DNA from: Azolla caroliniana
Lineage: Eukaryota > Plantae > Polypodiophyta
Assembly: GCA_043228905.1 (NCBI GenBank)
Contig: JBHGNT010000009.1
Coordinates: 18,662,001 to 18,726,000, forward strand
Direction of reading: 5' to 3'
Length of the DNA: 64,000 bases
Shown: piece by piece, positions 16,691 through 57,299 of the stretch
How positions within the stretch are numbered: position 1 is the stretch's first letter
Layout: every line of letters begins with the position of its first letter
Made by a program: the position numbers and the translations under genes
The notes under the pieces: generated by a model
Database searches by the model: none
What the model was told of the DNA's origin: nothing
What the model saw: only the letters and a program-made list of their open reading frames with translations

Positions 16691-19600
16691 TTGCAACTTA
16701 TGAATGGTCTAGAAAACCTTGTATAATGACATGCAACTTGTGAATGCTCCAAAAAACCTGGTATAATGAAATTCAATTTGTTTAGAAGGCCATGCGTTAC
16801 AAGGGGTTTATAGGTCATTTTGGCCTTTTAAAAAACCTAAAGAATCTTTTTTCTTTGTTTAAAGATTCTCTACTCTTTTGGGGAAGAAAGAGTTGTATGT
16901 TACCGGCCGGCAAAGGAGTCCAGAGTGGGAAACGGAGAGCTAATTAAGTAGTAGGAATGTGGTTGTAATTAAGCTATGAGTGTGGACGGACGGACCGGAA
17001 TCGGTATGCCATTCCGGATCCGGACCGATCCCGAACAGGTGCGGATGGCACCGTTTTGTAATATAGACCGGAAACCTATTTAAAGGCCTGGATACAATGT
17101 AATAGTTAGCGGTTAATTAATGAAAGCTTAAGCGTTGTTATATCTCTGTCAATTGCCGTTCTGTCTTAATTGTATATCTTACGCGTGTTATGAAGACGAT
17201 CCTAATAAGTAACTTAACTAAGTCGGATTAAGCGTTGAAGTCTAATCCGGTTGCCGCAACACCCTTTGGTGAAGTGTCTCACGTAGACACCCTGTGTTAG
17301 GCCATTGTCCGGCCCGAAGAGTTAACACAGTTTTTGGCGACCACGATTCCTGTTTTTGCAGCGAACGACGGCACGGATGGATGTCTAGATCAACGCACGA
17401 CCTGGTTACAGATCGAACTCGACGCCTTACCGAAAGGCAAAGGAGACGCGAGGCTTTCCAGCAAGCGGTGCAGGAAATTAGAGCGGATCGCTCGTTTTCC
17501 AACATAATCCGGAGAGTAGCGGAGGACTCCTACTAGTTACAGCAAACATCGCACCCGGACGACGGCAGCAGCCTAAGCAGCCTCCGGGAAACCGAATCCC
17601 TTCTCCACGCGTTGGCAAATGGAAAAGGCGAAGCAGAGGCCTTTTCAGCATATGAATTGGACTCCGAAGGGTAATACAGCGTGCACACGAACTACCGTAG
17701 CAGCAACGAAACCCCGGGCAGACCGGAGGACGAAGGATCAGATACCTTACCGACACCGGAACCGGAACCGGAAGTGCTAACGCTGGAACCCCCGGAACCA
17801 GCAGAAGAAGAACGACCTCCGACACCGGAAGTCGAGGAGGAGAGGCCTCCGTCACCAGCGGAAGAGAAACAACCGACACCGGAATCAAATCGGGAAAGAC
17901 CACTGACATCGGAAAAAATTCCGGAACGAGCACCAACGCTACCAGCCTGCACACCGATACTAGACGACGACATGCCGTTCCAGTACTCCAAGTATAGAGA
18001 TGATCCGGACGCGGAAGCTCATGTGCACGCATTTGAACAGACATGGGAAGCCAACCATGTGTCCCAGCGACTGACACCGGAGGAAGAAGAACGCTCTAAG
18101 ATAGCAGAGTTTGGCGTCACAGTGGAGGGACCGGCAGCAAGATGGCGTCGGACGCAGGACCCGTCTACCATCAACACCTTTGTAGATTTAAAAGCTAAAT
18201 TCATGCATTTCTTTCAAAAGGAGATGGACCAGACCGTAATGGTAGGCTTATTTTATACTATCCGGCAAGAGGCAAGGGAGAGCATTCCCCAATTTGTCAT
18301 CCGGTTTCAACGGATGCACAGTCAGCTTACCCGTGCACCCCCAGAGGAGGAATTACGGACGATATTCCTAAACGCGCTCCGGGAACCCCTACGCACGGTT
18401 TGCACGGTAATCGATTTCCGTACAAGTACCATCGACCAAGTCATTGACCGGGTGAAAGAGATGGAAAAGACAAGCTCCTGGCTCACACTGGGCGCACTTC
18501 AACGGGCGTTACCGTCCGATGAAGACCTCCGGTTTCGGCAAGCAATACAGTGCACAACCTGCTTGAATTCCGGACACTCGGCTCTAGAATGCACTATGAG
18601 GACGCAATGTGTAATCTGTCAGTCCAAGAGCCATACGACGGATAGGTGCGAGTATAATCTGTTGACTCGGCAAGCACCGCCCGTCCGACAAATTGAGCCA
18701 CGCAGCAGCCGGGATGAAGAAGACGAACGCTGGCGGCGAATGGATCGTGACCGACCGGCACAGGATGTCTAGTATGGCGAGCGACGGGAAAATGATGTCC
18801 GATATGGCGAGCGACGGGAAAATGATGTCCGGTACGGTGATCGGCGAGATAACTATGACCGGCATGATCGGCACCAGGATTACAATAGACGATACGAACA
18901 GTACAACCGGGAGCACTCCCCCGGGTATCGTCAGCAACGGGAGGAATACGGCCGATATAACGGGCAACCCCGTCAAGAGTACCGTAATAAGAAGAGCTTT
19001 AACAAAAAACGACATTTTAAAAAAGGCGGCTACCCCCGGGATCCGGAACAAGGCGCTCCAAGTAGCCAACCGGTACAAAACCCCGCGCGTACCGCAGGAC
19101 CTGCCCCGGGTACAACAGACAATGCCGAATCTAGCAATGCCTGGAAAACCTACTGCTACTACTGCAGACAGGAAGGCCATTATAGTAACCAATGCCTGGT
19201 GAAGAGCTATGAAAAACGACCGGCGGTAAATATGGTAGTCCCTGAGGTGGCAGACCTGCAGCAGGTGACCACAAGATCGAAGGGCATGGCCAAAGAATGG
19301 GAGACACAGGAGACCATCCGCAAACAAGCAATGGAATGGGTAAAGAAAGCAAATGAGCAGAATGTCACAGACTTACAGCAGCAAAAGGAGAGCACCGCAG
19401 GGCTTGCCGGCGGTAGTCACTCCGAGAACGAGACATGGCAAGCGTTGCAAGAATGCCAGATTACGTTACCACTAGGAAGACTCCTACAACTCGTGCCTAG
19501 ATTCACGGAAGGACTGAAGACGGCCATGACGGCAGGAGAACCATCACCGGCACCGGTACTCTTCTCGAATCCGGAAGAGGGACCAACAGTGGTAGACACC

Positions 19601-20764
19601 AGCAGTCCGGTAATCACTGCCATTGTAAAAGGGAAAGAACTCCCCGGCACAGTTATAGACGGAGGCTCTGGGGTAAATGTAATAAGCCTCCGGACGTGTG
19701 AGGACCTAGGAATCCACGAGTGGGAGCCGTGTCCGTTCTGGTTGCGGATGGCCGATACAAGCTCAGTGCGGCCGACAGGATTAATACAGAAATTAGAAGT
19801 CACCGTCGGCGGGCATACATTTCACATCTCGGTCGTAGTGCTACAATTACAGGCACAAGGCGCATACCCACTATTGCTGGGGCGGCCATGGTTGAAAACG
19901 GCACATATCAAACAGAATTGGCGAAAAAATATAATTACCTTCCGGCGAGGAAAAGCCAAGGTACGGGTACCAACACAGCCAAGGACGAGCACTGGCAAAG
20001 AATGTACACCGTTGTATGCGGAATGTGTCAACATGCTCGAAGGGTTAGCGGACGAAGAAGAAGCTCAATACCTGCAGGAAAACCCGAAGATCATACCCCT
20101 CTTCGAAATTGACATTGCCGAAGCCGTAGCACCGTACTTACCGCAACCGGAAGAGGCGGAAGCAGAACCGGATAAAGACGCAATCCGGGAGTTACGGCAA
20201 GCGCAGGAAGCGTTGGAAATGGCCGTTTCACAGCGCGTGAAAGCATCGCAATTGGAAGATGTGAATTTAGGCACGAAAGACGAAGCAAAACCGGTGCACA
20301 TCGCCAAGGAGATGAAGTCCGGAGACAAAACGACGATGATAACACTTCTCACGGAATTTCGCGACGTATTCACCTGGTCATATGAAGACATGTGAGGACT
20401 CGACCCTCAGTTATACCAGCATCAAGTGCACTTGAGCAAAGACGCAAAACTAGTGGCACAAAGACGGTACCGAATGAATCCCAATTATGTTGCCAAGGTC
20501 AAGGAAGAAATCGACAAACTGCTAAGAGTTGCCTTTATCCGTCCGGTAAAGAAAGCGACATGGCTGAGCCCGATCGTAGTCGTACCGAAGAAGAACGGAA
20601 AAATTCGAGTTTGAGTGGACTACCGGAAACTCAATGCGGCTACGGTAACGGATGCATTTCCACTTCCGTTCACAGATGGAGTGTTGGATGTCGTCACCGG
20701 CCATGAGGTCTATAGCTTCCTAGACGGATTCAGCGGATATAATCAGATCCGGATGCACCCCGAC

Positions 20765-23700
20765 TGTTGGAAACGAGGTCGTCAATGCGGAAGATCAAGA
20801 AGCATTCGATCCTTGCTGAATACCTGCGTATGACAGTTTCTATGTCGTTGCACAGAGAGAGAGTGAGAGAGAGAGAGACACACAAAAAAACTCTTTATTC
20901 CAAGAGACAAGAATACAACAATCCAACCTCACAAAAAGGTTACAAGGTCACTATATATAGTGACCAACTTAGGGCAACTACCCTTTATGCTAATTACATA
21001 GATGGCCAAAACGGGATAGCGTGAATACGTCCATTATACACATGTATTCGACACTCCCCCGTAATGGGCGTGTACATGGGTTATCTAAGATTACAGGTAT
21101 AGACTTGGGTTCTCGGACACATCCGCTTTGTTCGAGTCGGCAGGGTCCGAAGGCAGAAGACCGAACTGGTCGGGTCGGAGCAGTTGAAGCCGATCATTAA
21201 GGAACTGATGTCGGTTGTCGGGAACCATCCTGCTCTGTGTCCGGCTCTAACCGGATTGGTTTGTCGTTACGCCCATCTGATGCCGAAGAGACCGAAAACG
21301 GTCTGTCGAAAGACACTTGGTCATTCCATCTGCGACATTGTCGGTTGTGGATATTTTCTCTAGACCGATTTTCCCTGAAATGACGCAGTCCCGAACGAAG
21401 TGATATCGAACGTCGATATGTTTGGAGGCGTTGTGGTGAACCGGATTTTTCGACAAGGCAACAGCACCTTGACTGTCGCTGTAGACAACTGGAGCCGAGT
21501 CATGGTCGACTTGTCGAAACGTGTGCGCCAGCCGACCGAGCCACAAAGCTTCTTTTGCTGCGTCGGACGCAGCTACATATTCTGCTTCGGTCGTTGAGGT
21601 CGCTGTGCACTCCTGAAGTTTCGACTTCCACGAGATTGCTCCATTGCCGAATTTGAATCAGTATCCGGTTGTTGATTTCCGACTGTCTATACAGCCGGCG
21701 AAATCCGAGTCGGTGTAACCGACTACGCCTGAGGTTCGGTTCGGACCGAAAAGAATGCCATGGTCTTTTGTGCCAGCCAGATATCTGAACACATGCTTGA
21801 CTGCGTTCCAATGCGATCGGCCAGGATTGTGCATAAATCTGCTAACGACTCCTACGGCATGAGAAATATCAGGCCGTGTCGCGACCATCAGGTACATAAG
21901 GGAGCCGACTGCCGGTGCATACGGTACCGACTTCATATCTTCCCCCTCCGGGCCGGATGTCGGGCAGTCTCGCTGAGAGAGCCGAAGATTCATTGGGAGC
22001 GGGGTTGAAGCAGATTTGGCTGATTGCATGTTGAAGCGTTCCAAGACACGTCCGATATAGTCGGTCTGAGACAAAAAGAGATGTCGTTTATCGCGATGCC
22101 GACTAATTTTCATGCCAAGGATGTGTCGTGCCGGACCGAGGTCCTTCATGGCAAACTTCAACCGCAGTTGCCGAACGAGATCGGCAAGTTCGCCCGCGTG
22201 GCGTCCAGAAATTAGCATGTCGTCCACGTAAATGATGAGGAAGATGGGTGATCCATCTTGAGCTGTGTTGGTGAAGAGACAATGGTCCTCATCGCTTTTT
22301 GAGAAGCCGATCGATTGGATGAAGTCGTCGAACTTCTTGTACCATTGTCGCGGTGCCTGTTTGAGGCCGTATAGACTCTTCCTGAGTCGGCAGACTAGAT
22401 GTTCTTGGCCAGGTGCCACGAAGCCTTTTGGCTGCTCCATATAAATTTCTTCCTCGAGATCACCATGGAGGAAGGCTGTTTTGACATCTAGCTGAATCAG
22501 CTCCAAGTTGTCGGCTGCCACTACGCCGAGTAGAAAACGAAGGGTTGTCATTTTCACCACTGGTGAAAAAATCTCGTCGAAGTCGACGCCATATTCTTGT
22601 CGGAAGCCCTTCGCAACTAATCTGGCCTTGTACTTTGGGGTGGTCGAATCAGACGTCTCTTTTAGTCGATAAACCCACTTGCAAGGAAGAGCACGTCAGT
22701 TCCTAGGTAATTCGACTAGATCCCAAGTCTTGTTTGCTCGAATGGAGTGCATTTCCGACTCCATCGCCAGATGCCAGGTGGCGGAATCGACAGATGTCGA
22801 TGCTTCGTCGTAAGACGTCGGTTCGCCGGCGTCGGTGAAGAAGATTCCAGGAGAGTACCTCTCCGGAGGTTGCGACAGTCTCTCGGATCGTCGAGGTATG
22901 ATTGGACTGGTCGCATCGGGTATCGAGGTCGGATGGTCCGAAAGCGGATTGTTCTGCTGTGCCGAGTCGGAGTTGTCCGAGTCGGTAGTGTAAGGTTCAG
23001 CTACCCGTGAAGCTGACCGTGTGTTGAGAGCGGGGCCTTCTTGAAGGGTCGGCACATCGGAAAATGTTACCCTTCGGACTTCGATCGGTTTTTCGACTGA
23101 TGGATTCATAGCCGACTCGTTGAACACAACGTCCGAACTTCGAACGATTTGCCTGCGTTCGGGGTCCCAGAGTCGGTATCCCATTTCGCCGTCGGATCCA
23201 TATCCAAGGAAAATGCATTTCCTGGACCGAGGTGCAAGTTTTCGGCGATCATCTTTCGGAATAAGGGCGTATGCCTCGCATCCGAAGATCCTCAGCTTGT
23301 CGTAATTCGGCTTACTGCCGATCCATAGTTCCTGAGGAATTTGAAGTCCGAGAGGTCTACTTGGCGACATATTGATTATGTGTACTGCCGTGAGTAGAGC
23401 CTCTGCCCAGAAGCCATCCGACAGTCCGGAGTGTTGGAGCATGGAAACTATCCGTTCTTGGATTGTCCGATTCATGCGTTCGGCAATCCCGTTTTGCTCC
23501 GGACTGTGTGGTGCCGTAAATTCACGTCGAATGCCGCGTTGTCGGCAGAATTTGACGAATTCTTCGGATTTGAACTCTCCCCCATTGTCTGTCCGAAGGC
23601 ATTTCAGCTTTCGGTCGGTTTGATTTTCTACCATGGCGAGCCAATCGGTGAAGATCGGGAAGACCCGATCTTTGGTGCGAATTGGATAAGCCCACACCTT

Positions 23701-26209
23701 TCGAGTCGAATCGTCAATAAAACTGACGAAGTAAGAGGCACCGCCGAGAGACTGATGTGGCATTGGGCCACAGACGTCCGAGTGGACCAAATCGAGAGAT
23801 CTCGTTTCTCTTGGTGCTGATGTCGGGTGTGATGCGGCTGCTTGTTTGCCATACTGGCAATGCTCGCAGAATTGATGGTCGGAGAAGGAGAGTTTGGGGA
23901 TGTATCCGGCTCTAGATAGGTGCGTGATGCCGGCCTTGCTGAGGTGTCCTAATCTTCGGTGCCATAGTGATGACACAGGAATATCCACCAAAAACAGGTT
24001 ACCCTCTCTGAGCGTAACATGTAACGGATACAGTGAGTGTATCTTGGGTCCTCTAGCAAGCAGGAGGTTCCCCCTGTGGAGTGTCCACCCTCCCGAAGAA
24101 AAACCGGCACGAATGCCGTCTTCATCTAGTTGTCCGACTGAGATCAATGGCCTTGAGAGCTCGGGTACATGTCGGACATTGTGGAGTACAAGTGTAGAGC
24201 CACCTGCAAGGTTGAGCTCTACTGTGCCGATTCCGATGATGTCACAGTGTTGTGAGTTGCCGACTCGAACTGAGTCGGAGTGACGGATCGTATATTGCCG
24301 AAATTGGGATCGATGAGGAGTCACGTGAAATGACGCGCCCGAATCTAAGAGCCATGTGCTCGATTCTTCAGTCGTGAGTAGAACTTCTGATCCGACTGGA
24401 TTTTCGATTGATAGTATATTCGGGTCGTCCGGTAGTACATCAGCTGAGAAGCTGACGTAATTGATCTCCTCATGCCGGCCACTCTTCTTGTCGGATCTCT
24501 GAGACTTGTCGTTCTTGTTCTTGAGTGCGCGGCAGTCGGCTTTGATGTGTCCGGGTTTCTTGCAATAGTTGCAGATTCGGTTATCCCGTGACTGGCTCCG
24601 TCTTCGCTGATTGTTCGGCGGTCGTGAGGAATCTCTTCCTCGTATGTTCGATCGGTCTGTCGAACCTTGTACTACGTAAGCGTCGTCTGTTGAGTCTTTG
24701 GCAAAAGACTTTCTCCGAGCTGCTTCGGTCAGAATTGCGCTCGTGACTTCGGAGTATTTGACAGCCGTGGTTGACGCGTTGCACACAGTTGTGACGAAAG
24801 TTTCCCATGATGAGGGAAGGCTACTCATGAGTATCATTGCTCTGAGTTCATCCTCGATTGCCGTCCCCTGAGATGAGATTTGGGAGCTTATACTTTCGTA
24901 CTCATTGAGATGTGCTTGGACCGAATCGGATTCTTTCATCCGCAAGTTGTAGAGGCGCCGGATCAGAAACATCTTCGTTGCAGCGACCTTCTTTTCGTAA
25001 GTGTCCGACAGTGTTTTCCACAGTTTGAATGCTGTCGTACACGATTGCACCGTAAAATATACCGATTCCGATAGGTGCATCCGAATCGTGGCGCGGACGA
25101 TTCTGTCCAGCTTCTGCCACTCAATTGGTTTGTATCCTTCTGGAGGTTCTTCATTTTCGATGGGATCGATTTGCCCCTTGACTATGAGATAGTCCTGCAT
25201 TTGCTCCTTCCAGAAGTTGAAGTTCGATCCATCGAACTTTCGTAGACTCATTTCCGACGAGCCGGATGTTGATGCCATCAAATTTGGTTTCGGTTGACGG
25301 AGCTCGGTTCGGAGTTGACTACGAACCTTGTTGGAGTGCAGCCGGTTGGCTCACCCGATATCGTTCTAGTTGGATTTGAACCCGAGTCGGTTCGGCTTCG
25401 GAACTTGCTCGAATTGACTTCGGTAGCTTGAGGGACAGAACCGACTGGTCTTCCCGAATGTTGCCGAATACCGATTATTGAAACCGATTATCTGGACCGA
25501 TTCTGCTTCGGTTGACTGCAGCAACGAGAGAGACGGATCCAACTGATCCTCCCGAATGTCGATCAGCCAGATGAAGCACGAATTTGGGGTTGTTGTTTTA
25601 AGACCGATCTGCACCGAGTGGTTACAACGAGCAGCGAGCAGCGTTTAATGACCTTTTCGGATGCCGTTTAACCGAATGGAGCACGATCGTGTCAATGATG
25701 CACAAGGGGATTTCACCTCGAGCGGTTACGATCACAAGGAACAGAGTACAACCTGATGGCTTACTCCAAGCAAGATGATCTAACGCGATGAGATGCAAAC
25801 CTGGTTTTTTTTTTTTTCCTTCTTCTTCTCTCTTCTTCGAATGACGCAGGAAACCGAATGCAGAGACGACGGCCGACAGCGGATTGAAGGACCGACTACT
25901 GTGCAGGCTCTGATACCAGATGTTGGAAACGAGGTCGTCAATGCGGAAGATCAAGAAGCATTCGATCCTTGCTGAATACCTGCGTATGACAGTTTCTATG
26001 TCGTTGCACAGAGAGAGAGTGAGAGAGAGAGAGAGACACAAAAAAACTCTTTATTCCAAGAGACAAGAATACAACAATCCAACCTCACAAAAAGGTTACA
26101 AGGTCACTATATATAGTGACCAACTTAGGGCAACTACCCTTTATGCTAATTACATAGATGGCCAAAACGGGATAGTGTGAATACGTCCATTATACACATG
26201 TATTCGACA
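20765..26209 (-). mobile_element. Full-length Ty1/Copia LTR retrotransposon nested in the Gypsy RT
   Basis: 289-bp LTRs 20765-21053 and 25921-26209 differ at ~2 positions; TSD CCGAC (20760-20764, 26210-26214); PBS TGGTATCAGAGC (iMet) at ~25907-25918 on -; PPT GGGGGAG next to the left LTR. Confidence 0.97.
21247..25281 (-). pseudogene. Copia gag-pol (gag, CCHC, PR, INT, RT, RNase H) with two in-frame TGA stops
   Basis: CNYCKKPGHIKADC, WLLDSGAS, HRRLGH...CEHC, RTDNGGE, YVDDML, KHIDVRYHF. Stops at 22696-22698 and 21658-21660; the frame continues through both. Confidence 0.95.
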
Positions 26210-28815
26210 CCGACGACCAAGAGAAAACGGCATTCGTCACCGAATGGGGGGTGTTTGTGGCCGTGGTGATGATGTTCGGACTCAAAACAGCACCGGCAAC
26301 GTTTCAAAGAATCATCATGGAAATCTTTGGTGAATATATACCGGCTTTTATGCAGGTTTTCCTTGACGATTTCGCCGTCTATAGCCGGGAGGAGGACCAT
26401 TTTCAGCATCTCCGTCTTTGTCTAGAAAAGTGTAGAGCGTACCGGCTAAGCTTGAATCCGGCAAAGTGTGTATTTGGCGTGTCCAGTGGAACTTTATTAG
26501 GACATATCGTAAGCCAGGAAGGTATAGCAGTCGACCCGGACAAAGTGAAAGCCATATTAGAAGCACCGGCGCCGGCGCTGGCAAAGGCATTGAGCCGGTT
26601 CTTAGGCCAGATCCGGTGGCACAGCCGGATGCTCCGATACTTGGCCGACCTGGCTACACCGTTGCATGCCGCCGTACATCGGACACCATTCCAGTGGACC
26701 GATACTGAGGATAGGGCGTATAAGGCCCTCAAGGTACTATTATCGCAGGCACCGGTAGTACAACCTCCGGATTGGAGTAAAGAATTTCACGTGTTCGTGG
26801 ACGCCTCCGACATCGCAATCGGGAGCGTACTGATGCAGCTTACGGAACCAAAGTGGTACCGGCCAGTGTACTATGCCAGCCGGAAGCTATCCCAAGCAGA
26901 ACGGAACTACTCTACTACGGAACAGGAAGCTCTAGGAATGATCTACAGTGTGACAAAGTTTCGGCACTATTTATTGGGAAGGAAGTTTTCCTTCCATGTA
27001 GATCATTCAGCACTCCTTTACCTGGTGTCCAAGGCGTCACTCACCGGCAAATTGGCCCGGTGGACCTTACTATTACAGGAGTTCGAGTTTGAAATATTCC
27101 ACCGACCCGGTATACAGCATGCCGTAGCGGATTACTTAAGCCGATTGGAGTTCGGAGAGACGGGTGACGGAGTACTGGATGAGTTTCCGGATGCGGAGCT
27201 GTTTCAAGTCACTACGGAGACGGTAGCAGATGAGACAGTGGCCCAGGAAGACAAGGAACTGATACTGAGGGAAGCCCACTGCGGAGTTGCCGGAGGTCAC
27301 TATGCCGGAGATGTGACAGCCAGAAAAATATGGCAAAGTGGCCTATGGTGGCCAACGACATTAAGAGATGCGGTACGGTACGCAAAAGAATGTGACCTAT
27401 GCCAGAGAATGGGCCAGCCAACGGAGCAGGCTCGTATGCCACACCAGCCGGTACTACCACTCGAACCATTCCAAAAGTGGGGGCTGGACTTTGTAGGACC
27501 GTTCAAGCCACCGGCAATGAGAACGGGTAATCGGTACGTTATCATTGCTACGGATTACTGCACGAAATGGGTGGAGGCCAAAGCTTTACGGGATAACACC
27601 GCTGCGTTAACGGCAAAGTTTCTATATGAGTACATCTGGTGCCGTTACGGATGCCCCATTGAATTGATAAGTGACCAAGGGGGGCACTTTCTCGGACAAG
27701 TGGTGGAAAGCCTAACGACCTTCTATGCCGTGGTCCACAAACGAAGCACACCTTACTATCCACAGGCGAACGGATTAGCGGAATCAACAAACAAGACGCT
27801 CCAGAACATCCTTCGGAAGATCGTCAACGAGAACCGGACGGATTGGGACACAAAGCTACATAACGCGCTTTGGGCATACCGGACGGCATACAAAACGAGC
27901 ATCCGAACAACACCGTTCCGGTTGGCGTTCGGACTCGAGGCAGTCATGCCGGTAGAATTTCAAGTACCTAGCTTACGGATTCAGCTACGAGAACGGCTGA
28001 ACGAGAAGGAGTCGGAGACAATAAGGTTGATAGCCCTGTGTGAGCTGGAGGAACAACGGTTGGCCAGCATCCTACATTTAGAATTAGAGCAACGGCGACG
28101 GAAAGAATTCGTCGACCGGCACAGGAAAGGTAACGAAAAAATGTTCGCAATTGGCAAACCAGTGCTAGTATTCCAAACCCGGATGGGCAAGATGCCGGGT
28201 AAACTAAGGTTTAGATGGACCGGACCATATTGGCTAACACGGGAGTATAATGGGTCCTACCAGTTGGGGACACTTGCCGGCGAAGTGCTGGGCAAATGGG
28301 TGAATGGATTCCGGTTAAAGGCATATAGAGGACCGATGCCTAAGAACCCGTTTGAGCAAAGGACTGACGGCAACCACGAAGACGGTAACCGGAGAGAATG
28401 TGGCCGGTAAGGGTCCGGGAGGACCAACGGACATATGACGTCACACTAATAATAATAATAACTGAAAAAAAAAAAAAAAAAAACAATCATGCAAAAGCGA
28501 GGAATGAATGGATGAAAGAGCGTGGAGCGAAAAGGTACGTAGTGGGCATTTAAAGTGCCACCACAGGACATAATGCTATTTTAAGTACGCGACATGCACA
28601 AACTCGAAAAAGGCGCCAGAATGCACAGACAAAAACCATTGCGCGTAGAGACCCTCTATTTTCGCGAACCCAGGAGCACAGAAGCACCGAAACGCTGCAA
28701 GATTATCAAAAGAGAACCTGCGCACAGAGAACCCCCGCCTTCTTAACTCTCTCTTTCTCAACCCCGCTCTCATCACCATCCATCCTCGCCACCGCAGTCC
28801 AACCCCAACATAGAA

Positions 28816-31590
28816 ATGGACCCGCAAACGCTGTCGGAAGCCGCCAAGACATGGCTGAAGCAACACGGGCTCGAGGGCTTCCTGATGATGATGGAAGTAC
28901 CGCCACACAAAGAAGCCGACAAAGTGATCAAGGAAATCGATACAGAGGTCATAACGGCAGAGGCGATTCGAGCGTTAACAGGCCTTCCGGAGGGAGGCAT
29001 ACTCACGATCGACAATCCAACCCCGGAGCAACTCATCAGGTATTTTGGTGAGTACTCTCTAGCCAGCAAGGGCTACCGGACACAGAGCGGCAGAGATATG
29101 TTGTTCCGCGAAATTGCTCGTGTGCTCCATGAATACGGCCACGTATACCCTAGACCCCCTGTCATGCCGCAGAACCGGGCAGGGATGATCATCGCCACCT
29201 ATGAAGGCATCAAGGTGGATTGGCCGGTATTGATTGCAGACGGGTTGTGTGCGGCGATCGAGATCGTCAGAGGCAAAGACGGCAAAGAAGGCCGAGACAG
29301 ACGAAGGATATGGCACGCCGTAACGCAGTGGCTCACCCTGCTGGTGCCACCCGTTCAGACCGTCCAGCCCAAGAAGCGAGGAAGAGTGTCGGACGGCACC
29401 CCAAGGACGGCTTCCAAACGGCAGCAGTTGTTGGCCTCTAAGGCCAGTAAGGGAAAGGCAGTGGATGCAGACCAGGCGGCAGCAAGAAGTGGCAGCCGGA
29501 AGCGCCCAACGGAGGTGCAGGAGGAACCACCGACACGACCCGTAAAGGTCACACTCCGCCGACCGGTGAATCGAGAAGTGGACCCCTTGGCGGCAAAACT
29601 CAATGTCGGAGCTCAGGAGGAGGAAATAGAGGAGGAGCCTACGGAGCACCTCCAGCGACGGTCGTCGGCAAGGACCGTTGAGACAGCCGGGAAACGTTCG
29701 GACCCTCAGACGGAGGGAACACTGGCTCCCCATACCGAGACTCCTACGCCAAGGAAGGAACCGGAACCGGTGCAGAAGGAACCGGAAACAGAAGCCCCGG
29801 CACCACCGGCAACACCGGCAAGTCCCATTCCGCCAAAGCCGGAAAGGTCACTACAGCCTCCCTCGGTCAGCCAAGAAGAAGCGCAAGGGGACCAAGGACA
29901 GCAGGATGGTCCACGGGCAGAAACGGAACTACAACTCGGCGCAACCAGGCGGGACCACCCCTCTACAAGTGAGCCCATCTATCAAACCTCCATGCAAGCA
30001 CAACAAGGCACTGGTAGCCTGTGGCTCCGGTGGATAGGCGAACAGATAGCCGGAGCAGTGGGGTATATAGAGGCGGAAGAAAGAGCGCAAAGCGAACGGT
30101 TGCTCGTCACAACCGAACAACTAGAGACGGCCCGGTCCAGAATCCGGTGCCTTGAAAAAGATTTGGATCAGGTCACGACAGAGATGGCTAAAATACGGAT
30201 CCAATCACCGGTGACTCCGGTAAGTGTACAGAATAATGAAACGGAACGACCTGCACATAGGAATAAGACCCCGGCAACGGAAACCGTTCCGGCGAGAGAT
30301 GCGGCGCAAGCTCGGGAGCTTGCAGAATTGAGAGAGGAACTTGCCGCACAAGAAGCACTAAGGAGCCGTGAACGAGAATTGAAGACGGTGGCCGAAGCCG
30401 AATTAAAGAAGACTGCTAAGAACCTCCGCCGGGCAGAGGAGAGCCTCCGAAAAGGCCATCAAGCGTACGACCGGCTAAAGGAGGAGAAAGAAAAAGTGCT
30501 GCAGGAAAAGGACAAGCTGCGGAAAACGGCGGAAACAGAGATAGAACGGCTAAAGGAAGAGCTCCGCCAACAGAAGGACCGCGAGGACCGGGCCCGTCGT
30601 CAGATCAACGCACGGCTCAAGCAAAAGACGGATGATTTTGAGCACCTGCACCGGGACTACAAACGGCTAGAAATAGAGCATAAAGAATGGATGGCCGAGC
30701 TCCAGCAGGCAGTTGATCGGGCCGCAACGGCGATCGCCGACGAACGGGCGGAAAATACAAGACGCTTGGAAGAGGTGGAGAAGGTCCGGATGGAGCTCCA
30801 GAAGCAGCAGCAGGAAGACAAAGAGAGAGCGTCTACAATATTGCAGAAATTACAAAGTACATATCAAAGGCAACTGACGCATTACAAGGCGCAGGCGGAG
30901 GACAACGTAAAAATCATCAAACAACTGAAGGAGGAACGGCAAGCGACAGAAACCAAATCGCAATTGGGAACGAGCCGGATTCAGTCCATCCTCCGGGCAT
31001 GGCTGAATCAGACGAAGCACTTGATTGATGAAAGCTCCGTAAAATGGTGGACAAAGTGAGCACAAAACGCGGCGGAACTCCAGTTGATACGGGCGGATGT
31101 GGCAAACCGGCGGAAGGAAGGAGATGACTGTTATACGCTATCTTCCGAGGACTTCACCGCCATACGGGACGAGCTGGCCGACGACTTCCAAGTCCTAGCA
31201 GATGAACAGCTGGCGCAGGTCAGACAGCTCGTAGCTCAGCTGGACGATGATAGGCTGGACGCTCAAATCCAGTTTGAAAGCTACGAGCGGTCCCGGGTAC
31301 GGGAAGAAAAAGGGCAGGAAGCGACAACGGTTAACCTTAGTGATGAGGAACCGTCGTCGGCTGAGGGCTAGCCGGGAACCAGTCAACCGGAGACCGCCAC
31401 GACGCAGGGAGCAACGACGGAGACGCCGGTGTCAGAGCCACAAACGGAGGAGCAGCCGCAGCAACCACCAACGGACCCGCCGCAGCAGACAGCAACAGAG
31501 CAGCAACAACAACAACAACAACAACCACTTCCAAATGAACCATTGGAGCCTCTCGAACAGAGCATTCTGGACATTTTGGACGAAGAATAG
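28816..31590 (+). pseudogene. Gypsy extra ORF downstream of pol (~924 codons; globular N-terminus, Pro/Glu-rich linker, long coiled coil, poly-Q tail)
   Basis: The 747-aa ORF continues in the same frame through stops at 31057-31059 and 31369-31371 to TAG 31588-31590, ending ~55 bp before the 3' LTR. Confidence 0.8.
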
Positions 31591-46387: not shown

Positions 46388-47933
46388 TATAGTGGAATCT
46401 AGTAAATTTAGAAATATCTATGGAGTAATAGAGAGGTGAGAAATTGGGTTTGGAACCCAAGACATAGTGTTAGTGTAATGACTTACAACTATGGTAATTA
46501 TGATAAAAAAAGAAAATGAATGTTTAAGTTATCGATTAAACTCAAAGGAACCCAAGACCTAGTGCTAGACTCTAGTAGTGGGGTGAGAAAATTGGGTTTC
46601 AAACCCAAGATATAGTGCTAGTAGTGTAACGACTTACAACTAGAGTAATTGGGTAATTATTATAAAAAAAAGAAAATGAATGTAGTCATAGATTAACCTC
46701 GAAGGAGAAATTGAACAAATACATTTTAAGTACTTCTATGCTCATTTAGTGTTTCATTGACAATGTACATTGAAGCATCTCATGTAAAAGTCATATTTTT
46801 CTTCCTTGAAAAATCACAATGCACAAATTTCCGCATAATCATGTTAGTTTCCATTAGCCATTTAAACCCAATTGATGGACATATAGAAAAACATAAATTA
46901 TAAAAAAAACTAAATCAATGTATATATGTAGCAAAATGTGTTCTGAAGTTGTTAGTTAGATATTAATGTGTATAAATAGCAATGATGTTTCTGCCTCTGT
47001 TTTGACTAAAGCGATGTATTTAGCGAAATGTATTCTAAAGTCATTAGTTAGATATTAATACATATAAATAGTAATGATGTCTTTGCTCCGTTTCAATACT
47101 CTCTCTAGATATACACAGTGTTGCCTTTTGCCCGGCCGTTTTGAACGTTTTTGGCAAATTTAACCGTATATAAAAGTTAATTTTAAAATGAAACCGTCAA
47201 TCTTGACGGGCATATGTTTTATGAAAACGTAAAAATGAAGGCTTAAAATTTCATAATACCGTCAAATTTTACTAAGACCAATACTATAGTAGTATAGTCC
47301 TAGGTAGTAGGAACAAATTGTTCAAGTTGCATTGGGAGTGTAGGAATTTGAAAGGCTCACATATGTCACTATGTGTGTAACAAAAAGGTAAAAAAACTAA
47401 TAGAGTCTAAATTATGAATCTTTACTTCCCAATTCCCCGTTTCCCCATCTAAGACCTTCCTTTCCCTTTTCCCCCCTTTCCCCCCTTTTCCCCCATTTTC
47501 CCTGTTTGTTCGTTGCTCCCTCAGCCCTGCACCTTGCTGGAAGCTCGCAACTCAGTGCTCACTATCCCTACTCGAAGCTTGTTGCTCGTTGCCTGCTACT
47601 CATAGATTCAGCAACATCTCCTACAACAGTCCTGCTCACCCATCTAAGGTAGCTGTGTGTGTGTGTGTGTGTGTGTGTTTAAGATTAAAATAGACTAAAC
47701 CATCCTCATTGAAGCAATAGGATCCTTAATGAATATATTTGCATGCTGCTCATATTTGCCTCACTTCCAGAAATAGATTGCAGAAAAAAGGATGTCTCTA
47801 ATGTATCCTTACAGAGGATAAGCATACACATGAAGACTCCATTGATACCTTCAATTCCTACAAAATGAATTTCACACCATAAAGTGTAAAAAAAAAACTG
47901 AAACCTCAAAAACTATCCCAAGATAAAATGTCT

Positions 47934-48497
47934 TTAAGCAGCTTCCTGTATAGGGTACTCGAACACTACTTCTTTTCCAGTTAGCTTCTTATAAGCAACA
48001 CCAAAAGTCTCTAACTTATACTCAATATTGTTCCTCTCCTTGGGGTCCAAATATACTCGCATTATACGTGAACCATCCAGACGGAAACGAACTCTTTTTC
48101 CCACAATCTCTACTGGATAGACTAAATCTTCAAGAATAGCCTCATGAACAGATGTTAATGTGCGGCTTCTAGGACGAGCAACAACTATTCCCTTCTTGGG
48201 AGGCCTCATAATGCGCCTTGTCGCAATGAAAATAACATCCTTGCCACTGAATTTCTTCTCAAGTTCACGGACAAGACGGTTGTGAATTTTCTTGAAAGAT
48301 TTCCTCAGTCTGTATGGCACATGGATTATGACAGCCTTCCTGCTTCCATTGATATCTATTTGCTTTGCAGAATTGATGAATAGATCCCTTAGGTCACTTC
48401 TTAGCTCCTGGTTAGTGTTCTCGAGATCAAAGAGAGCCTGTGCAACAGACTCTTCAAAATCATCGGGCTCGAGGCCTTTCTCCTTATGGATCTTCTT
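47934..48497 (-). pseudogene. RPS7: Intronless 40S ribosomal protein S7 (eS7) copy lacking the start codon
   Basis: Open frame [27 protein letters not shown]...[12 protein letters not shown]...[19 protein letters not shown]...[19 protein letters not shown]; no introns; first few codons replaced by a (GAA)n tract; probable 3' UTR to ~47680. Confidence 0.93.
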
Positions 48498-48515
48498 CTT
48501 CTTCCACCTGCGTCG

Positions 48516-48547
<32 letters not shown>

Positions 48548-49326
48548 ATGAACTTTAGATAATAGAGGATCTTCTTCTTCTTCTTCTTCTTCTTCTTCTT
48601 CTTCTTCTTCTTCTTCTTCTTCTTCTTCTTCTTCTTCTGCCTGCGTCCTCTCTCTCTCTCTCTCTGGTATGAACTTTAGATTAATAGAGACTAATGTTTA
48701 TTGTCTCAATAAAAATCAATAAAAATCCGCAACTTTTAACAATGATCCATCTCGTCATATCAATAGTTATTTCCTATGGTTAGGAAATTACTACATATCC
48801 AACGTTGATGGCCAGAGCATTTTCCGACTCTATTAATGGCTAAATCATTCTTATATTTCCCTCTACGGAAATTTACAATGGCTTGCCTAATATCATTGTT
48901 GCTTTTGTTAACTACGAATGTTGCTCGTACTTGTCTCATGTTTTCTTCTTTTGATTGCACCTATGGTTCCTTGATGGTGTGGGATGATACACCTTCAAGC
49001 AATTTATTTTCCTTCAAGCAATTCGTTTTCCACCATCCGATCACTCACCACATTGTTTTGCTTTTCTTGAATTCTTTGTTCTCTCTTAGCTTCTTGGTTT
49101 GCTCTCTTGTCATGCCTTTTCTAGGCTTTCATTGGTTTTAGTTGTTGAGTTCTAGATGAAGTAGATATACCACCAAATTCTTTTACTAGTCCATCAAAAC
49201 TAGTATTGCTCTCCTCTTTAAGGGCAAAAGTTTGGGAATTATATTCATGTAAAATCTCATTGCCCAACAGGTCATAACTAATATGTATGGGTTTAATGAT
49301 GCTAGTGATTGTTTTGAACTGATGGT

Positions 49327-51612
49327 ATGATCTTTTCTTTCATGACCCATTTCTTCTTATTCAGAATAATTATGGCTCCTAAAAGAAAAAACCAACGAAC
49401 CATCAGTGGGATGTTTGCATGGAAACCACCCAACGATACCAATGACATAAATCTAAACAATGATTTAAATGAGGATATGGATATGTTTGGGATTGATTTA
49501 GAGAGTTTAACTCGAGAGAGTTGTTCCTCTAATATAACTAAAGAAAAGCCTAAGAGAAAATTCCGTGAAGCACGGAGAGATAAATTCCCATGGATAAGAT
49601 GCATTGTGCAAGGAGACAAAACATTAATGAAATGTGCATGGTGTGAGAAATACGCTAGTCCTGGGCCTTGGGGTCTTGGTTCTGGATGCATTACTTTGCA
49701 ACTTGATGCAATTTTGACCCATGTCAACTCAAGTGGTCATAAATTATGTGCATCAAAGTGGATATGTGATGTTGAAGGGAAAGCAATGTCCATCCCAAAG
49801 CATGTATCACAATTGGATGATATTAACAAAAATAAGGTCATAACAACAATGAAACTCATGTACTTTATTGCAAAAAAAGATTTGTCTATCGCTACATACC
49901 AAGAATTATGTGATTTGGCTGTGCTACTAGAGGTGCCTAATATGCCTAAGCAACATGATTATATATCTTATACTAGTAGATATGGGGGATATGAATTTTT
50001 GGTTGCCTTCGGGAAATATCTTCTAGAAATTCAAAGCTCAAACCTAATAAATTCCCCATACTACTCTTTGATGCTAGATGAAAGTACTGACAATGGATTA
50101 GAGTTGCATCTCATTATGTATGTTACATATTTGCAATGTGGTGGTTGTGGGCCTAAGCAAACTGAATATATGGGTTTGCTGAAAATTCCCAATGGTAAAG
50201 GTAGAACTATATATGAACATGTTAAGCATCTATTAGGCGATCGATGCCTCAACATGAACAAGTTGATCGGATTGGCAACTGATGGTGCATCATCAATGAT
50301 TGGTAGTGAAATTGGAACAGTAACATTAATGAAAAATGATATCCCAAATTTGGTTGGTTTACATTGTATTGCTCATAGAGAAGCATTGGTTATTTCAGAT
50401 GTATCTAAAGATATCCTTGAGCTCATTCTTGTAGAAAAAATTGCAAATAAGGTATATGCATGGGCTAACAATAGTACCAAAAGGACACATGAAATTTTAG
50501 AGCTCTTGGAACAAATGCAATTGGATGCTCATAGACCATTACAAATTCATAATATTCGTTGGTTGTCATGTGGTCAAGTCATGGAAAGACTAGTGAGTAT
50601 AATGCCTGCAATACTTACTATTTGGAAGAAAGAGAACTTAAACGAGTGCTATAATAAAGCTTGTATCTATAGTGTGCAATTTTGCTTTTGTATGATGGCT
50701 GATGTGTTGCATTTGATGAATATCTTGAGCTTGAAACTTCAAAAAGAGAATTTGGATGTAACTTCAATTGGTGCAGAAATTGATATTACAATTTCTAATT
50801 TGCGGAGGTCTTTCTTGAGAAATGACACATTTGCGGATGGAACAATGTATTTATCCAAGTTCTTAAGATGTTCTAAAGTTAGGTTTTTGGAAATAGAGGA
50901 TAAAGATGGCGTTACATATATACATGAACTATACTTCAAACAAATTCCTATGGATAAAGCAAGTCAAAATGATCCAAATCCCAATATTGCAAAATCTAAG
51001 GGAATGAGGCCATTTATAGATGGATCACTTGAAAGTTGTATTAAACTATCTCAAAATTATGTGCAAAATGTTATTGATGGACTAAATGCAAGATTCCCTG
51101 ACTTAAGCCTCTTCAATGCAGCAAAATTATTCAGCCCATGCCATTATGCAGATGATGATGTGATTAGGGATAGTAAAGCAAAGACATGGTTGGGAATTTT
51201 GATTTCTCACTTACAGCCAAATGTTGATGTCAATGCATGTCCTCAAATTTCACATGATGCAAAGGCTTGTGAAATGGAACTCTATAGGTTTGTTGACACT
51301 TTACGTTTAAATTGTGAAGGCTATACTATGCATGAAGCTTGGCGTATGTTTTGCAAAATGAAGGATTGGCAAGATAGTTTCCCTCATTTGATGAAATTAT
51401 GGCAAGCTACTTTGGTTATTCCTTCTAGCACAGTTTCGTGTGAGAGAGGGTTCTCTAAGCAAAATCTCATCAAAGAGATGAAAAGAAATCGATTGAATAT
51501 AGAGCATTTAGATGATCTAATGCGAGTCTCATTGAATGGGCCACGCATTGAAGAAATACAATGGGATCGTGTACATGAAATTTGGAAAGATGCAAAGGAT
51601 AGAAGGATATAA
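49327..51612 (+). CDS. hAT transposase (ZNF862-like), apparently intact
   Basis: 761-aa uninterrupted ORF with N-terminal zinc finger (CAWC...H..S..H), DESTD, TDGAS, CIAH (CxxH), IRWLS and the dimerisation-domain CERGFS; lies inside the TIRs. Confidence 0.93.
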   Translation: MIFSFMTHFFLFRIIMAPKRKNQRTISGMFAWKPPNDTNDINLNNDLNEDMDMFGIDLESLTRESCSSNITKEKPKRKFREARRDKFPWIRCIVQGDKTLMKCAWCEKYASPGPWGLGSGCITLQLDAILTHVNSSGHKLCASKWICDVEGKAMSIPKHVSQLDDINKNKVITTMKLMYFIAKKDLSIATYQELCDLAVLLEVPNMPKQHDYISYTSRYGGYEFLVAFGKYLLEIQSSNLINSPYYSLMLDESTDNGLELHLIMYVTYLQCGGCGPKQTEYMGLLKIPNGKGRTIYEHVKHLLGDRCLNMNKLIGLATDGASSMIGSEIGTVTLMKNDIPNLVGLHCIAHREALVISDVSKDILELILVEKIANKVYAWANNSTKRTHEILELLEQMQLDAHRPLQIHNIRWLSCGQVMERLVSIMPAILTIWKKENLNECYNKACIYSVQFCFCMMADVLHLMNILSLKLQKENLDVTSIGAEIDITISNLRRSFLRNDTFADGTMYLSKFLRCSKVRFLEIEDKDGVTYIHELYFKQIPMDKASQNDPNPNIAKSKGMRPFIDGSLESCIKLSQNYVQNVIDGLNARFPDLSLFNAAKLFSPCHYADDDVIRDSKAKTWLGILISHLQPNVDVNACPQISHDAKACEMELYRFVDTLRLNCEGYTMHEAWRMFCKMKDWQDSFPHLMKLWQATLVIPSSTVSCERGFSKQNLIKEMKRNRLNIEHLDDLMRVSLNGPRIEEIQWDRVHEIWKDAKDRRI

Positions 51613-52622
51613 TATATTGTTTCGTACAAATATTCGATGTATTTACTTTTTGAAGGGCATTTTTTTTGACAAACCGTCAATTTGACGGGCAAAAATTTTG
51701 GAATACTGTTCTCATGACAGGCAATGTTAGTCGTCAAAAGGCAACACTGGATATACATATGATTTCACATCCATCTAAAATGAAACCCTCTGAAAGTAAG
51801 AGTATTATTACCACCCCAAACCCTTGAGTGTTTCTTTATTTCCCCAAATGCCCCAAGTCAACCCGTTGAAAGCCCGTTTCCATATCTTATTGAAATAATT
51901 ATATGGTCAATTCACAACTTCTCCTCAATTCTAATGTGCCTTTGGGCAATTATATGATCAATTTATCTCACGTCTAATATGACATTTCAAAGTTTTTCCC
52001 AATAGAATTGCTTTAACATGGAGAGGCTAAACTCCCCATGTCTAACATGAGATTTCAAAGTTTTTCCCGATAAAATTGCTTTAACATGGAGAGGCACTAT
52101 TAAACTCTACAGACTACAAGATAAAGATGTATAGGTCATATTGGACCTTTTCATACAATAACATAATGTATCACTTTGTCTTTTCTGACACTCACACTCA
52201 CATATACACTCACTCATAAAAGTCACTCTAACTCCCACTCGATAAAAAAATGGGAATATTGTAACACAAAGAGACATCAATAGAATATCAATTAAAATAA
52301 CATGACCCATACTACATAGAATCTATAAAATGTTTTTTACACTATATTCATAAATAGGCACTGAAAGCAAAATTCCTAGGTAATCATTTCAACATAAATG
52401 TATCTTTGCCACTACAATGTTGAGATCGGCATTTCAAACAAAATAACTCCAAATTGTCAAAGAGTGAGGGAGAGGTGAGAGATGAAAGAGAATAAAAGAG
52501 AGTACAAAGAAAGAAACTTAAAGATGCATGCATACAAGAGTTCCAAAAAAAAAAGAAATACACACATTTATAAGGTAAGTTCTTATCAAATGAAGAAACA
52601 CACACACACACACAACTAACAA

Positions 52623-54599: not shown

Positions 54600-56710
54600 T
54601 TTTAAATCCTGGTAGTGTCCCCGCATCCATGACTTCACATTAATGCCATAATGTGTCAACAACCATCTAAATAACACAACTTTTTTAGGAATTTGCATGG
54701 CCCATAACCATTTCCAATAAGCATTCATCCAAGAATCTCTTACATTACCAAATCTCCAAAATTTACAAGCTGTTGGTGTACAGTCACACCTCTCCTTAAC
54801 ATTTCTCTACCCATTTTTATCGAATATTGAAAAAATGGGATTTTGTTACCCAACATTCCTTGTGCTGATCTGATTTGCCATTTCCACTCACTAGGATCCC
54901 ACAAAAGACGATCAATGGGCTTATTCTCATAGAGCCATAAATTAGAGAGATTGTTTACATCATTTGGATGTGGGTTCAATATCCATTTTTTATCTTTCTT
55001 CCACAATATATGAATAGGGAACCTATTCCCTTGAGTTACAATTTCATCTTCCACAAAGAGAGAATGAAGTTGTCCAGAAGGCAAAACATCGAAGTAAAGG
55101 CATTCATGAGCGTTTTTATAACCCCTAACCCCCAATAAGACATGTAGGGCTGAAAACATATGATACCAAAACAGACTAGTTTGAGAAGGCTGAAAGGAAG
55201 ATATTGTAAAGACTCTATCCATTTCTGCATTCATAATGTTCCCTCCCCAAATTGTACTACAAACATGGGTTTTGTTTTCCATCGTTGAAGAAGAAAAGGT
55301 CGGCCAATTCCAAACTAACTTAGCTTCACCTTTATCAAAGTCAACCCAATTCAACCTAGTTCTCTTCCCTAACATTACCCCCTCTTCTGATGTAAATAGT
55401 GGGTTCAATATGAGGGGTTGATGCAACCATTCCTCCTTACATGATGGTAGAGATTGGACTAAGTTATGTTTCAAATCCCACCATGCCTTCATGATACCCC
55501 TAAAAAACTTATCTTGGCGAAAAATATCAATGGAATGGTTAAAATATCTTAAAAACCACCATCTAATACTATCTTTCCAATTGCCATTGGTAGAAGGCAT
55601 AACTTTAGCCATTCTCTGGGCCTTAAGATTTTTTTGCAAGGCTCCCCACTAGGCAACAAACCTCTGATAATAAATTTTCCCAATAAAGCCCTACATTGTA
55701 AAAGAGGCTCAATCAATCCAAGACCACCCTTGTCTTTTGGAGTTGTAATAACTTTCCAAGATACCTTGGCTCTCACATAAGAACAATCTTTAGATCCCCA
55801 AAGGAAATTTCTAATAAGCCTTTGTACTTGTGATAAAGCAAAACGTGAGCACAACCAAGCCGATAAAATGTACCACATGGAAGCTAACAATACTTGATTG
55901 GCAACAACAACCCTTCCTGCCAATGACAATTTAACAGTATTCCAATATAACAATTTCTTCCTTATAGCAAGCAACAGAGGAGCTACATGATCTTCTGGCG
56001 AGAGATTAATACCTACCTGACATCCCAAGTATCTTATAGGTTTACCATGCGGAATCCATTGAGACCCTTCTTGTGGACACCACAAAGGGTTTAGTTACCT
56101 ACCCAGAACCCCACCGATTTATTCCAATTAATAACAGATCCAAGAAGCATAACAAAATGTATCGATAGCCTGTTGTACTCTAGAAAGATTATCCTTAGAA
56201 CCTTGCAAATACAAGGTTGTATCGTCAGCAAATTGACAATCCACAACTTGTTCCTCTAACCATGGCCATTGTAGCCCTTTTATATTCATAATATTACTTG
56301 TAAGAAAACTACTAAAAGCTTCTCCGATCATCAAATATAAAAAAGGAGCCAATTGACATCCCTGTCTCACTGACCTCGAAATTGTGAATGGTTGGCCTAA
56401 ATCTCCATCTATTAATACCCTACTAGTAGCTGAGTTGTAAAGAGCTGAGACAACCGTTAACCATTGATTAGGAAAACCCAACTTTTCCATGGTACCCCTC
56501 AAAAAAGACCTTGTGAATTCTTGGCCTAACTCTCCATCTACTAATACCCTACTAGTAGCTGAGTTGTAAAGAGCTGAGACAATCGTTAACCATTGATTAG
56601 GAAAACCCAACTTTTCCATGGTACCCCTCAAAAAAGACCTTGTGAATTCTTGGCCTAACTCTCCATCTACTAATACCCTACTAGTAGCTGAGTTGTAAAG
56701 AGCCGAGACA
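54600..56710 (-). mobile_element. L1-like LINE ORF2 fragment (RT and C-terminal region), 5'-truncated
   Basis: SRSVRQGCQLAPFLY, QFADDT, YLG, LSLAGRVVVANQVL, FLWG and KGGLG motifs; frameshifts; a 120-bp block occurs ~2.5 times at 56409-56710. Confidence 0.9.
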
Positions 56711-57299
56711 CCCGTATTCGAGTTCTTTATCGTATTCAAGTTCCGGAAAAAAACAATTTGAGTTCTTGAGTGTGTTCAAGTTTGAGTTCCTAGTCGGATC
56801 TGAGTTTTTCATTGGATTCTAGTTCCAAAAAAAAAACAATTTGAGTTCTTGAGCATGTTCGAGTTTGAGTTCCTAGTCGGATCCAAGTTTTTCATTGGAT
56901 TCTAGTTTAAAAAAAAAACAATTTGAGTTCCTTGTAAGATCTGAGTTCTTCATTGCATTAGAATTCCAAAATAAATAAATAAATAAAATCCAAGTAGATC
57001 GAATGGATTTTGTTTTATTGTTTTGGGAACTCAAATGTGATGAGGAACTCAAATCCAATGAAGAACTTAGATTCAACTAAGAACTCGAATTTGATAAAGA
57101 ACTTGGGTATCGAATTAACATTAACAAACCCTTATTACACATAAATAGATTAAGCAAAATGAACATGGATCATAATGACATAACGATAAATACATATAGT
57201 AATAACGTCCTTCCATTACATGTCCAACAATTGCATTAGGAAAGGGGTCTTTGCATAACCTTCTATAAGCAGTGGTACAATATCTATGAATTTACTTAT

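Follow-up and report, generated by a model that had tools for sequence, protein, structure and literature searches.

The 64,000-nucleotide stretch of the Azolla caroliniana genome analysed here (the window: GenBank assembly GCA_043228905.1, contig JBHGNT010000009.1, positions 18,662,001 to 18,726,000 of the forward strand) contains, at positions 47116-51749, a 4,634-bp DNA transposon of the hAT superfamily that carries an intact transposase gene and, antisense to it, a spliced copy of the mRNA of ribosomal protein RPS7 (eS7). An earlier note on this DNA had described the capture of an RPS7 mRNA. Comparison with the rest of the transposon family indicates that it belongs to a series of captures made one after another at a single slot of the element, and that breaks in this slot have likely been patched repeatedly from mRNA. 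The RPS7 copy itself probably arose by RNA- or cDNA-templated break repair in the slot of a progenitor that carried a copy of the RPL21 mRNA, perhaps through the reverse transcriptase of a long interspersed nuclear element (LINE); an RNA- or cDNA-templated capture had been proposed in the earlier note, and fits the junctions described below.

The element is delimited, as first reported, by a perfect pair of 15-bp terminal inverted repeats (TIRs; 47116-47130 on the forward and 51735-51749 on the reverse strand), also found in the family copies, and by identical 8-bp target site duplications (TSDs), GATATACA, at 47108-47115 and 51750-51757. Matching 8-mers flank 29 of the 30 family stretches with two TIRs (27 perfect, two with one mismatch), the exception being an older relative (L061), and the duplications favour T at positions 2-3 (14/28 each) and A at positions 6-7 (19/28 and 16/28), with no central TA. 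Downstream of the antisense RPS7 copy, where an intact transposase had been noted, a stop-free open reading frame (ORF) of 746 aa (49372-51612, forward strand) scores above the Pfam cut-offs for the hAT dimerisation region (PF05699; 29.6 bits against 21.4) and for the C17orf113-type zinc finger (PF25431). Its DESTD (235), TDGA (302), CxxH (331), RW (395) and CERGFS (689) motifs, whose catalytic role we assume, could all be placed, and a structure search returned only a weak match, to the C terminus of Hermes (E=0.075). Short TIRs, an 8-bp TSD and a DDE transposase with CxxH, RW and a C-terminal dimerisation region make the element a member of the hAT superfamily. Judged by its intact transposase between intact ends it is of the autonomous type, a state common to three of the seven RPS7-bearing elements (the window copy and two others); across the family, 11 cargo-bearing copies have an unbroken transposase.

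The RPS7 copy occupies 789 nt of the reverse strand (47709-48497) and extends from codon 6 to the stop codon (47934-47936) and on through 225 nt of 3' untranslated region (UTR), bearing out its first description as nearly complete and intronless. It spans host codons 6-192, its frame matches PF01251 (E=1e-78), and it shares 95.5% identity with the host gene, which lies on contig C20, encodes 192 aa and has four GT-AG introns (1409, 77, 661 and 191 nt) within the captured span. All four are precisely gone from the cargo, and an intronless parent gene, a possibility raised in the earlier note, is thus ruled out. Read against the parent gene and a progenitor-type element, the junctions of the cargo contain neither poly(A) nor a flanking duplication, in agreement with the first reading of the window, and display microhomology in place of the poly(A) remnant and TSD that an ordinary retrocopy might have left. 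When the cargo protein was searched against the 523-Mb genome, 19 candidates yielded 15 matches, comprising seven full-length intronless copies (95-100% identity), one frameshifted intronless copy seen on contigs C11 and C694, and the split gene on C20. All seven full-length copies lie inside complete elements with both TIRs, mutually 98.6-99.8% identical, which argues against a chance association of transposon and cargo. They display six different TSDs: L016 and L017 (contig C5) have theirs in common as one insertion within a tandem duplication of ~24 kb (99.4-100% identity). The spread of the seven copies over five large contigs with six TSDs rules out an assembly artefact, and by the same TSDs the RPS7 element has transposed to six independent sites. 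The earlier suggestion that the transposon might amplify RPS7 therefore holds for the copies but not for working genes, as none of the seven has an in-frame ATG ahead of the RPS7 frame and their variants look neutral (see below).

The site of capture is a slot (47649-49364, forward strand) whose borders resemble a splice donor (AG/GTAG) and an acceptor (CAG, 7 nt ahead of the ATG), suggestive of an intron in the transposase 5' UTR. Family members were gathered with the transposase (best 60 of 541 candidates scored) and with the 5' end of the element (best 40 of 107 scored), and 40 stretches were compared. They are alike at the 5' end up to CCATCTAAG/GTAG and a (CT)n tract, differ thereafter, and are alike again from just before TTCAG/AATAATTATG; the donor and acceptor motifs are thus retained across subfamilies while the interior of the slot is exchanged. 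A search with the donor pattern gave 50 hits (10 for a reversed control). Of these, 39 are part of the element, whereas 11 show no match to it and were dismissed as further slot types. All 39 slot-bearing copies have host-derived sequence behind the tract, and an empty slot was found in none of them. Their contents are ubiquitin-RPS27a (12 copies), a KH-gene composite (nine), RPS7 (seven), RPL21 (three), an OTU deubiquitinase (three), a gene from a C11 locus together with OTU (one), a fragment that we take to be FCF1-like (two; a Pfam search of this short piece gave no hit) and sequence whose origin was not identified (two). Some of the ubiquitin-RPS27a and RPL21 copies are deleted derivatives. 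Damaged family copies (L018, L025, L031-L032, L051 and L057) display a 290-bp transposase duplication, a rearranged 5' part and slot insertions of 5-10 kb.

Within the window, the slot reads as a palimpsest. It opens with a (GT)n tract (47654-47678, forward strand), present in all seven RPS7 elements in place of the (CT)n of every other subfamily. There follow 36 nt of RPL21 3' UTR left from the previous cargo (47679-47714, reverse strand; 97% identical to the RPL21 gene on C21 and common to the RPL21 elements), the RPS7 copy, and two copies of a junction unit made up of a scrap of RPL21 5' UTR, (CT)n and ~25 nt without known origin (48498-48689), a unit present in two to four copies in RPL21 elements. 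Next to these lie a fragment of an older cargo from the single-copy C11 locus (48744-48997; 81% identical, gene not named) and a remnant of what appears to be the oldest cargo, a copy of the OTU deubiquitinase mRNA (49008-49220, reverse strand; 91% identical to the host gene on C2).

Both ends of the RPS7 copy are joined to RPL21-element sequence through microhomology. On the 3' side the junction lies 36 nt inside RPL21, away from the tract, at six nucleotides, TTGAAG (47709-47714), common to RPL21 and RPS7; the RPL21 remnant thus intervenes between RPS7 and the (GT)n tract, which the earlier note had placed side by side. On the 5' side (48488-48497) the overlap amounts to 9-10 nt, (G)GATCTTCTT, or would read GGATCTTCTT if the switch hit an inner copy of the duplicated unit, a possibility to which the earlier note points. 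For random junctions between RPL21-element and RPS7-gene sequences, the chance of the 3' overlap is 0.002 per junction and that of at least 9 nt is 7e-5. A repeat of the 5'-junction sequence in the adjacent unit, reported at 48568, is present there as GGATCTTCTT but starts at 48567; similarly, the (GAA)n tract to which RPS7 was said to be fused and the duplicated unit both exist, but were inherited from the RPL21-carrying progenitor. RPS7 (774 bp) took the place of at least 638 bp of RPL21 cargo, and scraps of RPL21 were left on both sides. In run X9, 75 RNA reads continue beyond the 3' end of the RPS7 cargo, which is thus not the main poly(A) site in that run; RPS7 contigs of runs X2 and X4 stop 1-3 nt from this end, although contigs cannot reveal RNA ends.

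Three other cargos are spliced as well. The RPL21, ubiquitin-RPS27a and OTU copies have each precisely lost one intron (~1.2 kb, 790 nt and 5560 nt, respectively), which together with the four of RPS7 makes seven out of seven spanned introns. Three of the four spliced cargos are ribosomal-protein mRNAs, a bias to be expected if mRNA abundance drives capture (the depth in run X9 is ~1400 for RPS7 and ~30 for OTU). Genome searches, whose counts are lower bounds, turned up no free intronless donor covering any of the four. They did reveal a second intronless RPS7 cDNA, truncated at its 5' end (L023 4440-5154 on C11; L022 4789-5503 on C694), that is located within an ankyrin/TPR-like gene, in one of its introns, and joined to the (GA)n of a dispersed repeat. 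This cDNA and the hAT cargo terminate at one and the same base of RPS7, the cDNA likewise without poly(A) and derived independently from an allele resembling the C20 gene; the 5' junction of the cDNA is present in RNA run X5. It was rejected as the donor because its 5' end falls ~45 nt short, one of its exon junctions carries a deletion, and its identity is 97.5% to the host gene versus 94-95% to the cargo. A partial intronless copy of ubiquitin-RPS27a on C4 (L078 3942-4287), flanked by 18-bp direct repeats within retrotransposon-like sequence, is without its 3' half.

Such free copies, together with the genomic fragments captured in the same slot and the lack of the donor allele in the assembly, might suggest a DNA route in two steps, in which an ordinary RPS7 retrocopy formed elsewhere was copied into the hAT element by template switching during gap filling, as in the Pack-TIR model; microhomology at junctions is typical of that process in the available text of its description (PMC8277862). 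This route would nevertheless call for a since-lost retrocopy for each of the four spliced cargos, the C11 copy being too short at its 5' end, marked by its exon-junction deletion and nearer the host gene, and the C4 copy lacking its 3' half. It would also leave unexpected the capture of near-whole mRNAs without any retrocopy flank. We consider it unlikely.

The RNA- or cDNA-templated repair that we favour would have begun with a break at or near the (CT)n tract, brought about by fragility of the tract, by nicking by a LINE endonuclease or in the course of gap repair after excision. The broken top-strand end TTGAAG would then have paired near the 3' end of an RPS7 transcript and been extended by ~780 nt on the spliced RNA, likely by the reverse transcriptase of a LINE that targets (CT)n. 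The new strand, as the sequence shows, rejoined the element through the 9-10-nt microhomology, with replacement of RPL21 and without acquiring poly(A) or a TSD. Since the cargo is antisense and intronic, it would be spliced out and the transposase would stay usable. The element then moved to the six sites counted above. Spliced OTU, RPL21 and ubiquitin-RPS27a copies entered the same slot earlier, and genomic fragments did so as well. Alternatively, a canonical target-primed LINE insertion may have brought in RPS7 with poly(A) and a TSD, and later deletions may have trimmed the tail, the duplication and RPL21. Bat Helitrons offer a precedent, as far as the accessible part of that report goes (PMC4224331), and both the RPL21 cargo and that derived from C11 lie, like the LINE described below, between two (CT)n tracts in which a TSD would be hidden. 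The position of RPS7 36 nt inside RPL21 would, however, require two separate microhomology deletions, and more than ~3-4 A are kept at none of the five cDNA 3' junctions (OTU, RPL21, ubiquitin-RPS27a, RPS7 and the C11 copy), making this the least probable of the explanations considered here.

A candidate enzyme for the favoured, RNA-templated repair is provided by a two-ORF LINE of ~4.6-4.7 kb with a reverse transcriptase domain, which sits inside the (CT)n tract of the slot in the C8 copy of the element (L085 8020 to L072 2984), with (CT)n on both sides. Its family has at least 2513 candidate members, the 40 that were scored being 98% alike; its 3' end reads (ATCT)n(CT)n, (CT)n being in the tail at 21 of 30 loci, and (CT)n adjoins six of 12 visible 5' junctions by eye or four of 12 by a strict rule. 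From these sequences the family is large, young and inclined to insert at (CT)n tracts. The presence of this LINE in the slot tract, and of the C11 RPS7 cDNA at (GA)n, suggests that capture is tied to such tracts and not to the transposase. Host polymerases with reverse transcriptase activity, or cDNA of long terminal repeat (LTR) elements, are possible alternatives. A more far-reaching proposal, which we put forward only as a doubtful extension, is that the slot works as a sampling cassette, in which the (CT)n tract within the leader intron attracts the reverse transcriptase of a microsatellite-targeting LINE; this enzyme would serially overwrite the slot with antisense copies of abundant host mRNAs, and every new antisense copy of an essential gene would protect the element from silencing and found the next burst.

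A number of observations weigh against the repair of the slot from mRNA, or against the part ascribed to the LINE. All four spliced cargos are antisense to the transposase, and four out of four is too few for significance. The FCF1-like fragment retains an intron and is in sense orientation, and promoter-like genomic pieces also occur in the slot, which suggests that DNA-templated capture takes place there too; single-exon or promoter-like pieces are uninformative as to an RNA or DNA origin. Relative to the (CT)n strand, the LINE integrates in sense orientation and the mRNA cargos lie in antisense, and the normal priming polarity of the LINE therefore fails to explain them; RPS7, moreover, was joined 36 nt off the tract. 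The predicted splice (47648 to 49365) was found in no read or contig of eight of the 17 listed RNA runs, which says nothing either way, transposase depth was 0 to <1 in three raw RNA runs, from a relative, and the RPS7 reads in the runs examined carry host alleles. Finally, there is 4.5% divergence between the cargo and the assembled host gene, more than separates the cargo from the RPS7 contigs of runs X2-X4 (16 letters and one gap over ~740 nt). Among the matches listed, those contigs share seven of 14 scorable fixed cargo differences, one of them a 5-bp indel, and at these differences runs X9, X10 and X1 mostly agree with the C20 gene. The donor was thus likely another RPS7 allele or lineage, absent from the assembly, which leaves room for a lost DNA intermediate. 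These affinities hint at capture in a related lineage followed by entry through hybridisation, or at an old polymorphism. We note that a second RPS7 paralogue (~85% alike over 47931-48490), which the genome search did not return, is expressed in runs X3, X4, X5 and X11.

The order of the captures can be read from two trees, one of the 5' end (41 rows) and one of the start of the transposase (31 rows, without the deleted copies). Rooted at the midpoint only, they agree in placing the OTU, FCF1 and unidentified types at the base, followed by RPL21, then ubiquitin-RPS27a, then RPS7 and KH as sisters; a tree of the 3' end (29 rows) is mostly unresolved. Purifying selection on the RPS7 cargo was suggested by a dN/dS (ratio of non-synonymous to synonymous substitution rates) of 0.16-0.27 against the host gene. 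It was rejected because the variant codons among the RPS7 copies, two synonymous and 15 non-synonymous, are about what neutrality predicts for 123 synonymous and 435 non-synonymous sites, and because the fixed differences are partly common to the expressed alleles of X2-X4. After capture the cargo has most likely been a neutral passenger, and its stop-free frame would be a mark of youth and not of function. Selection might still act on cargo in another way, whichever mechanism brought it in, if antisense copies of essential, strongly expressed genes, lying in the transposase pre-mRNA, make silencing of the element costly to the host or shift its small-RNA signature, each swap of cargo starting a new burst. 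Epigenetic conflict is described for maize in the available part of bioRxiv 10.1101/777037; none of the 39 slots is empty, and the cargo types define a succession of ever younger clades (mean identity 98.9% for six RPS7 copies, 99.0% for three ubiquitin-RPS27a copies and 99.8% for seven KH copies). We find it hard to favour this addition, given that the RPS7 variants look neutral, that abundance bias accounts for the ribosomal cargos and that the youngest and most intact subfamily, KH (8/11 unbroken transposases), has a KH-gene fragment with promoter pieces and no ribosomal mRNA. The maize study, in the same part, gives no gain in copy number.

Elsewhere in the window, long ORFs of LTR-retrotransposon and LINE type are present at 17500-31100 and 54700-56800. 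A second young hAT family (L062-L064; 38% protein identity, ~4.0 kb, copies 99% alike) has an AT-rich duplicated leader, with no cargo seen.

Gene capture by TIR transposons of plants is usually viewed as occurring at the DNA level and as ending in non-autonomous elements. In the family described here, which keeps its transposase, at least four separate captures of spliced mRNA are recorded at a single site, and the parents, the progenitor and the junctions can all be read. It is a naturally occurring archive of break repair, likely templated by RNA, in the germ line of a plant. The slot offers a small, defined substrate for asking which enzyme acts and what effect, if any, antisense copies of essential genes have on silencing. 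In the literature searched we found no autonomous TIR transposon with serial replacement by mRNA, but coverage was partial and prior plant cases may exist. A 2026 review, in the portion available, gives RNA-based capture for retrotransposons only and allows that a route in DNA elements may still await discovery (PMC13317346).

With regard to its transposase, the element resembles the ZNF862, C17orf113 and ZMYM1-FAM200-like hAT transposases in its PF05699 and PF25431 domains and in its nearest Atlas clusters, which are hAT/ZNF862-like (scores of 0.96-0.98). As far as the accessible parts of the reports on the other systems allow, the element can be compared with Pack-TYPE and Pack-TIR elements (Pack-MULE, Pack-CACTA and Pack-hAT). 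Like these, it places host gene sequence between TIRs and multiplies it by transposition, with microhomology at the junctions and several unlinked donors per element. Pack-TYPE elements are, however, described as non-autonomous (PMC8903248), and Pack-TIRs as products of DNA gap filling with microhomology (PMC8277862), whereas this family has 11 unbroken transposases, four spliced cargos replaced at a fixed slot, and intron-bearing chromosomal cargo only in the FCF1-like fragment. Bat Helitrons likewise amplify intronless mRNA copies, among them that of ribosomal RPLP0, but these are simple LINE-1 insertions with poly(A) and TSD into empty sites (PMC4224331); here a cut-and-paste hAT had older cargo replaced without either feature, and of the hallmarks of a LINE-1-type processed pseudogene only precise intron loss is seen. 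In LTR-mediated retroposition (PMC5131818), too, a mobile element acquires mRNA through template switching and the captured sequence is then amplified. That capture takes place during the element's own reverse transcription, whereas a hAT has no RNA intermediate and its cargos are antisense. A close precedent, as are the bat Helitrons, is the patching of Cas9 breaks with spliced cDNA in mouse zygotes (PMC4516963), where pieces of spliced mRNA are found at the break without poly(A) and with short microhomologies, including a double-microhomology form. Those are induced, single events in a mammal; the captures in Azolla would have taken place naturally and repeatedly in a plant, been inherited and been multiplied by transposition. 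Taken together, the element acts like a Pack-TYPE transposon but by its retained transposase and its spliced cargos stands outside that class, and the RPS7 cargo, spliced, free of poly(A) and joined through microhomology, acts like a product of RMDR.

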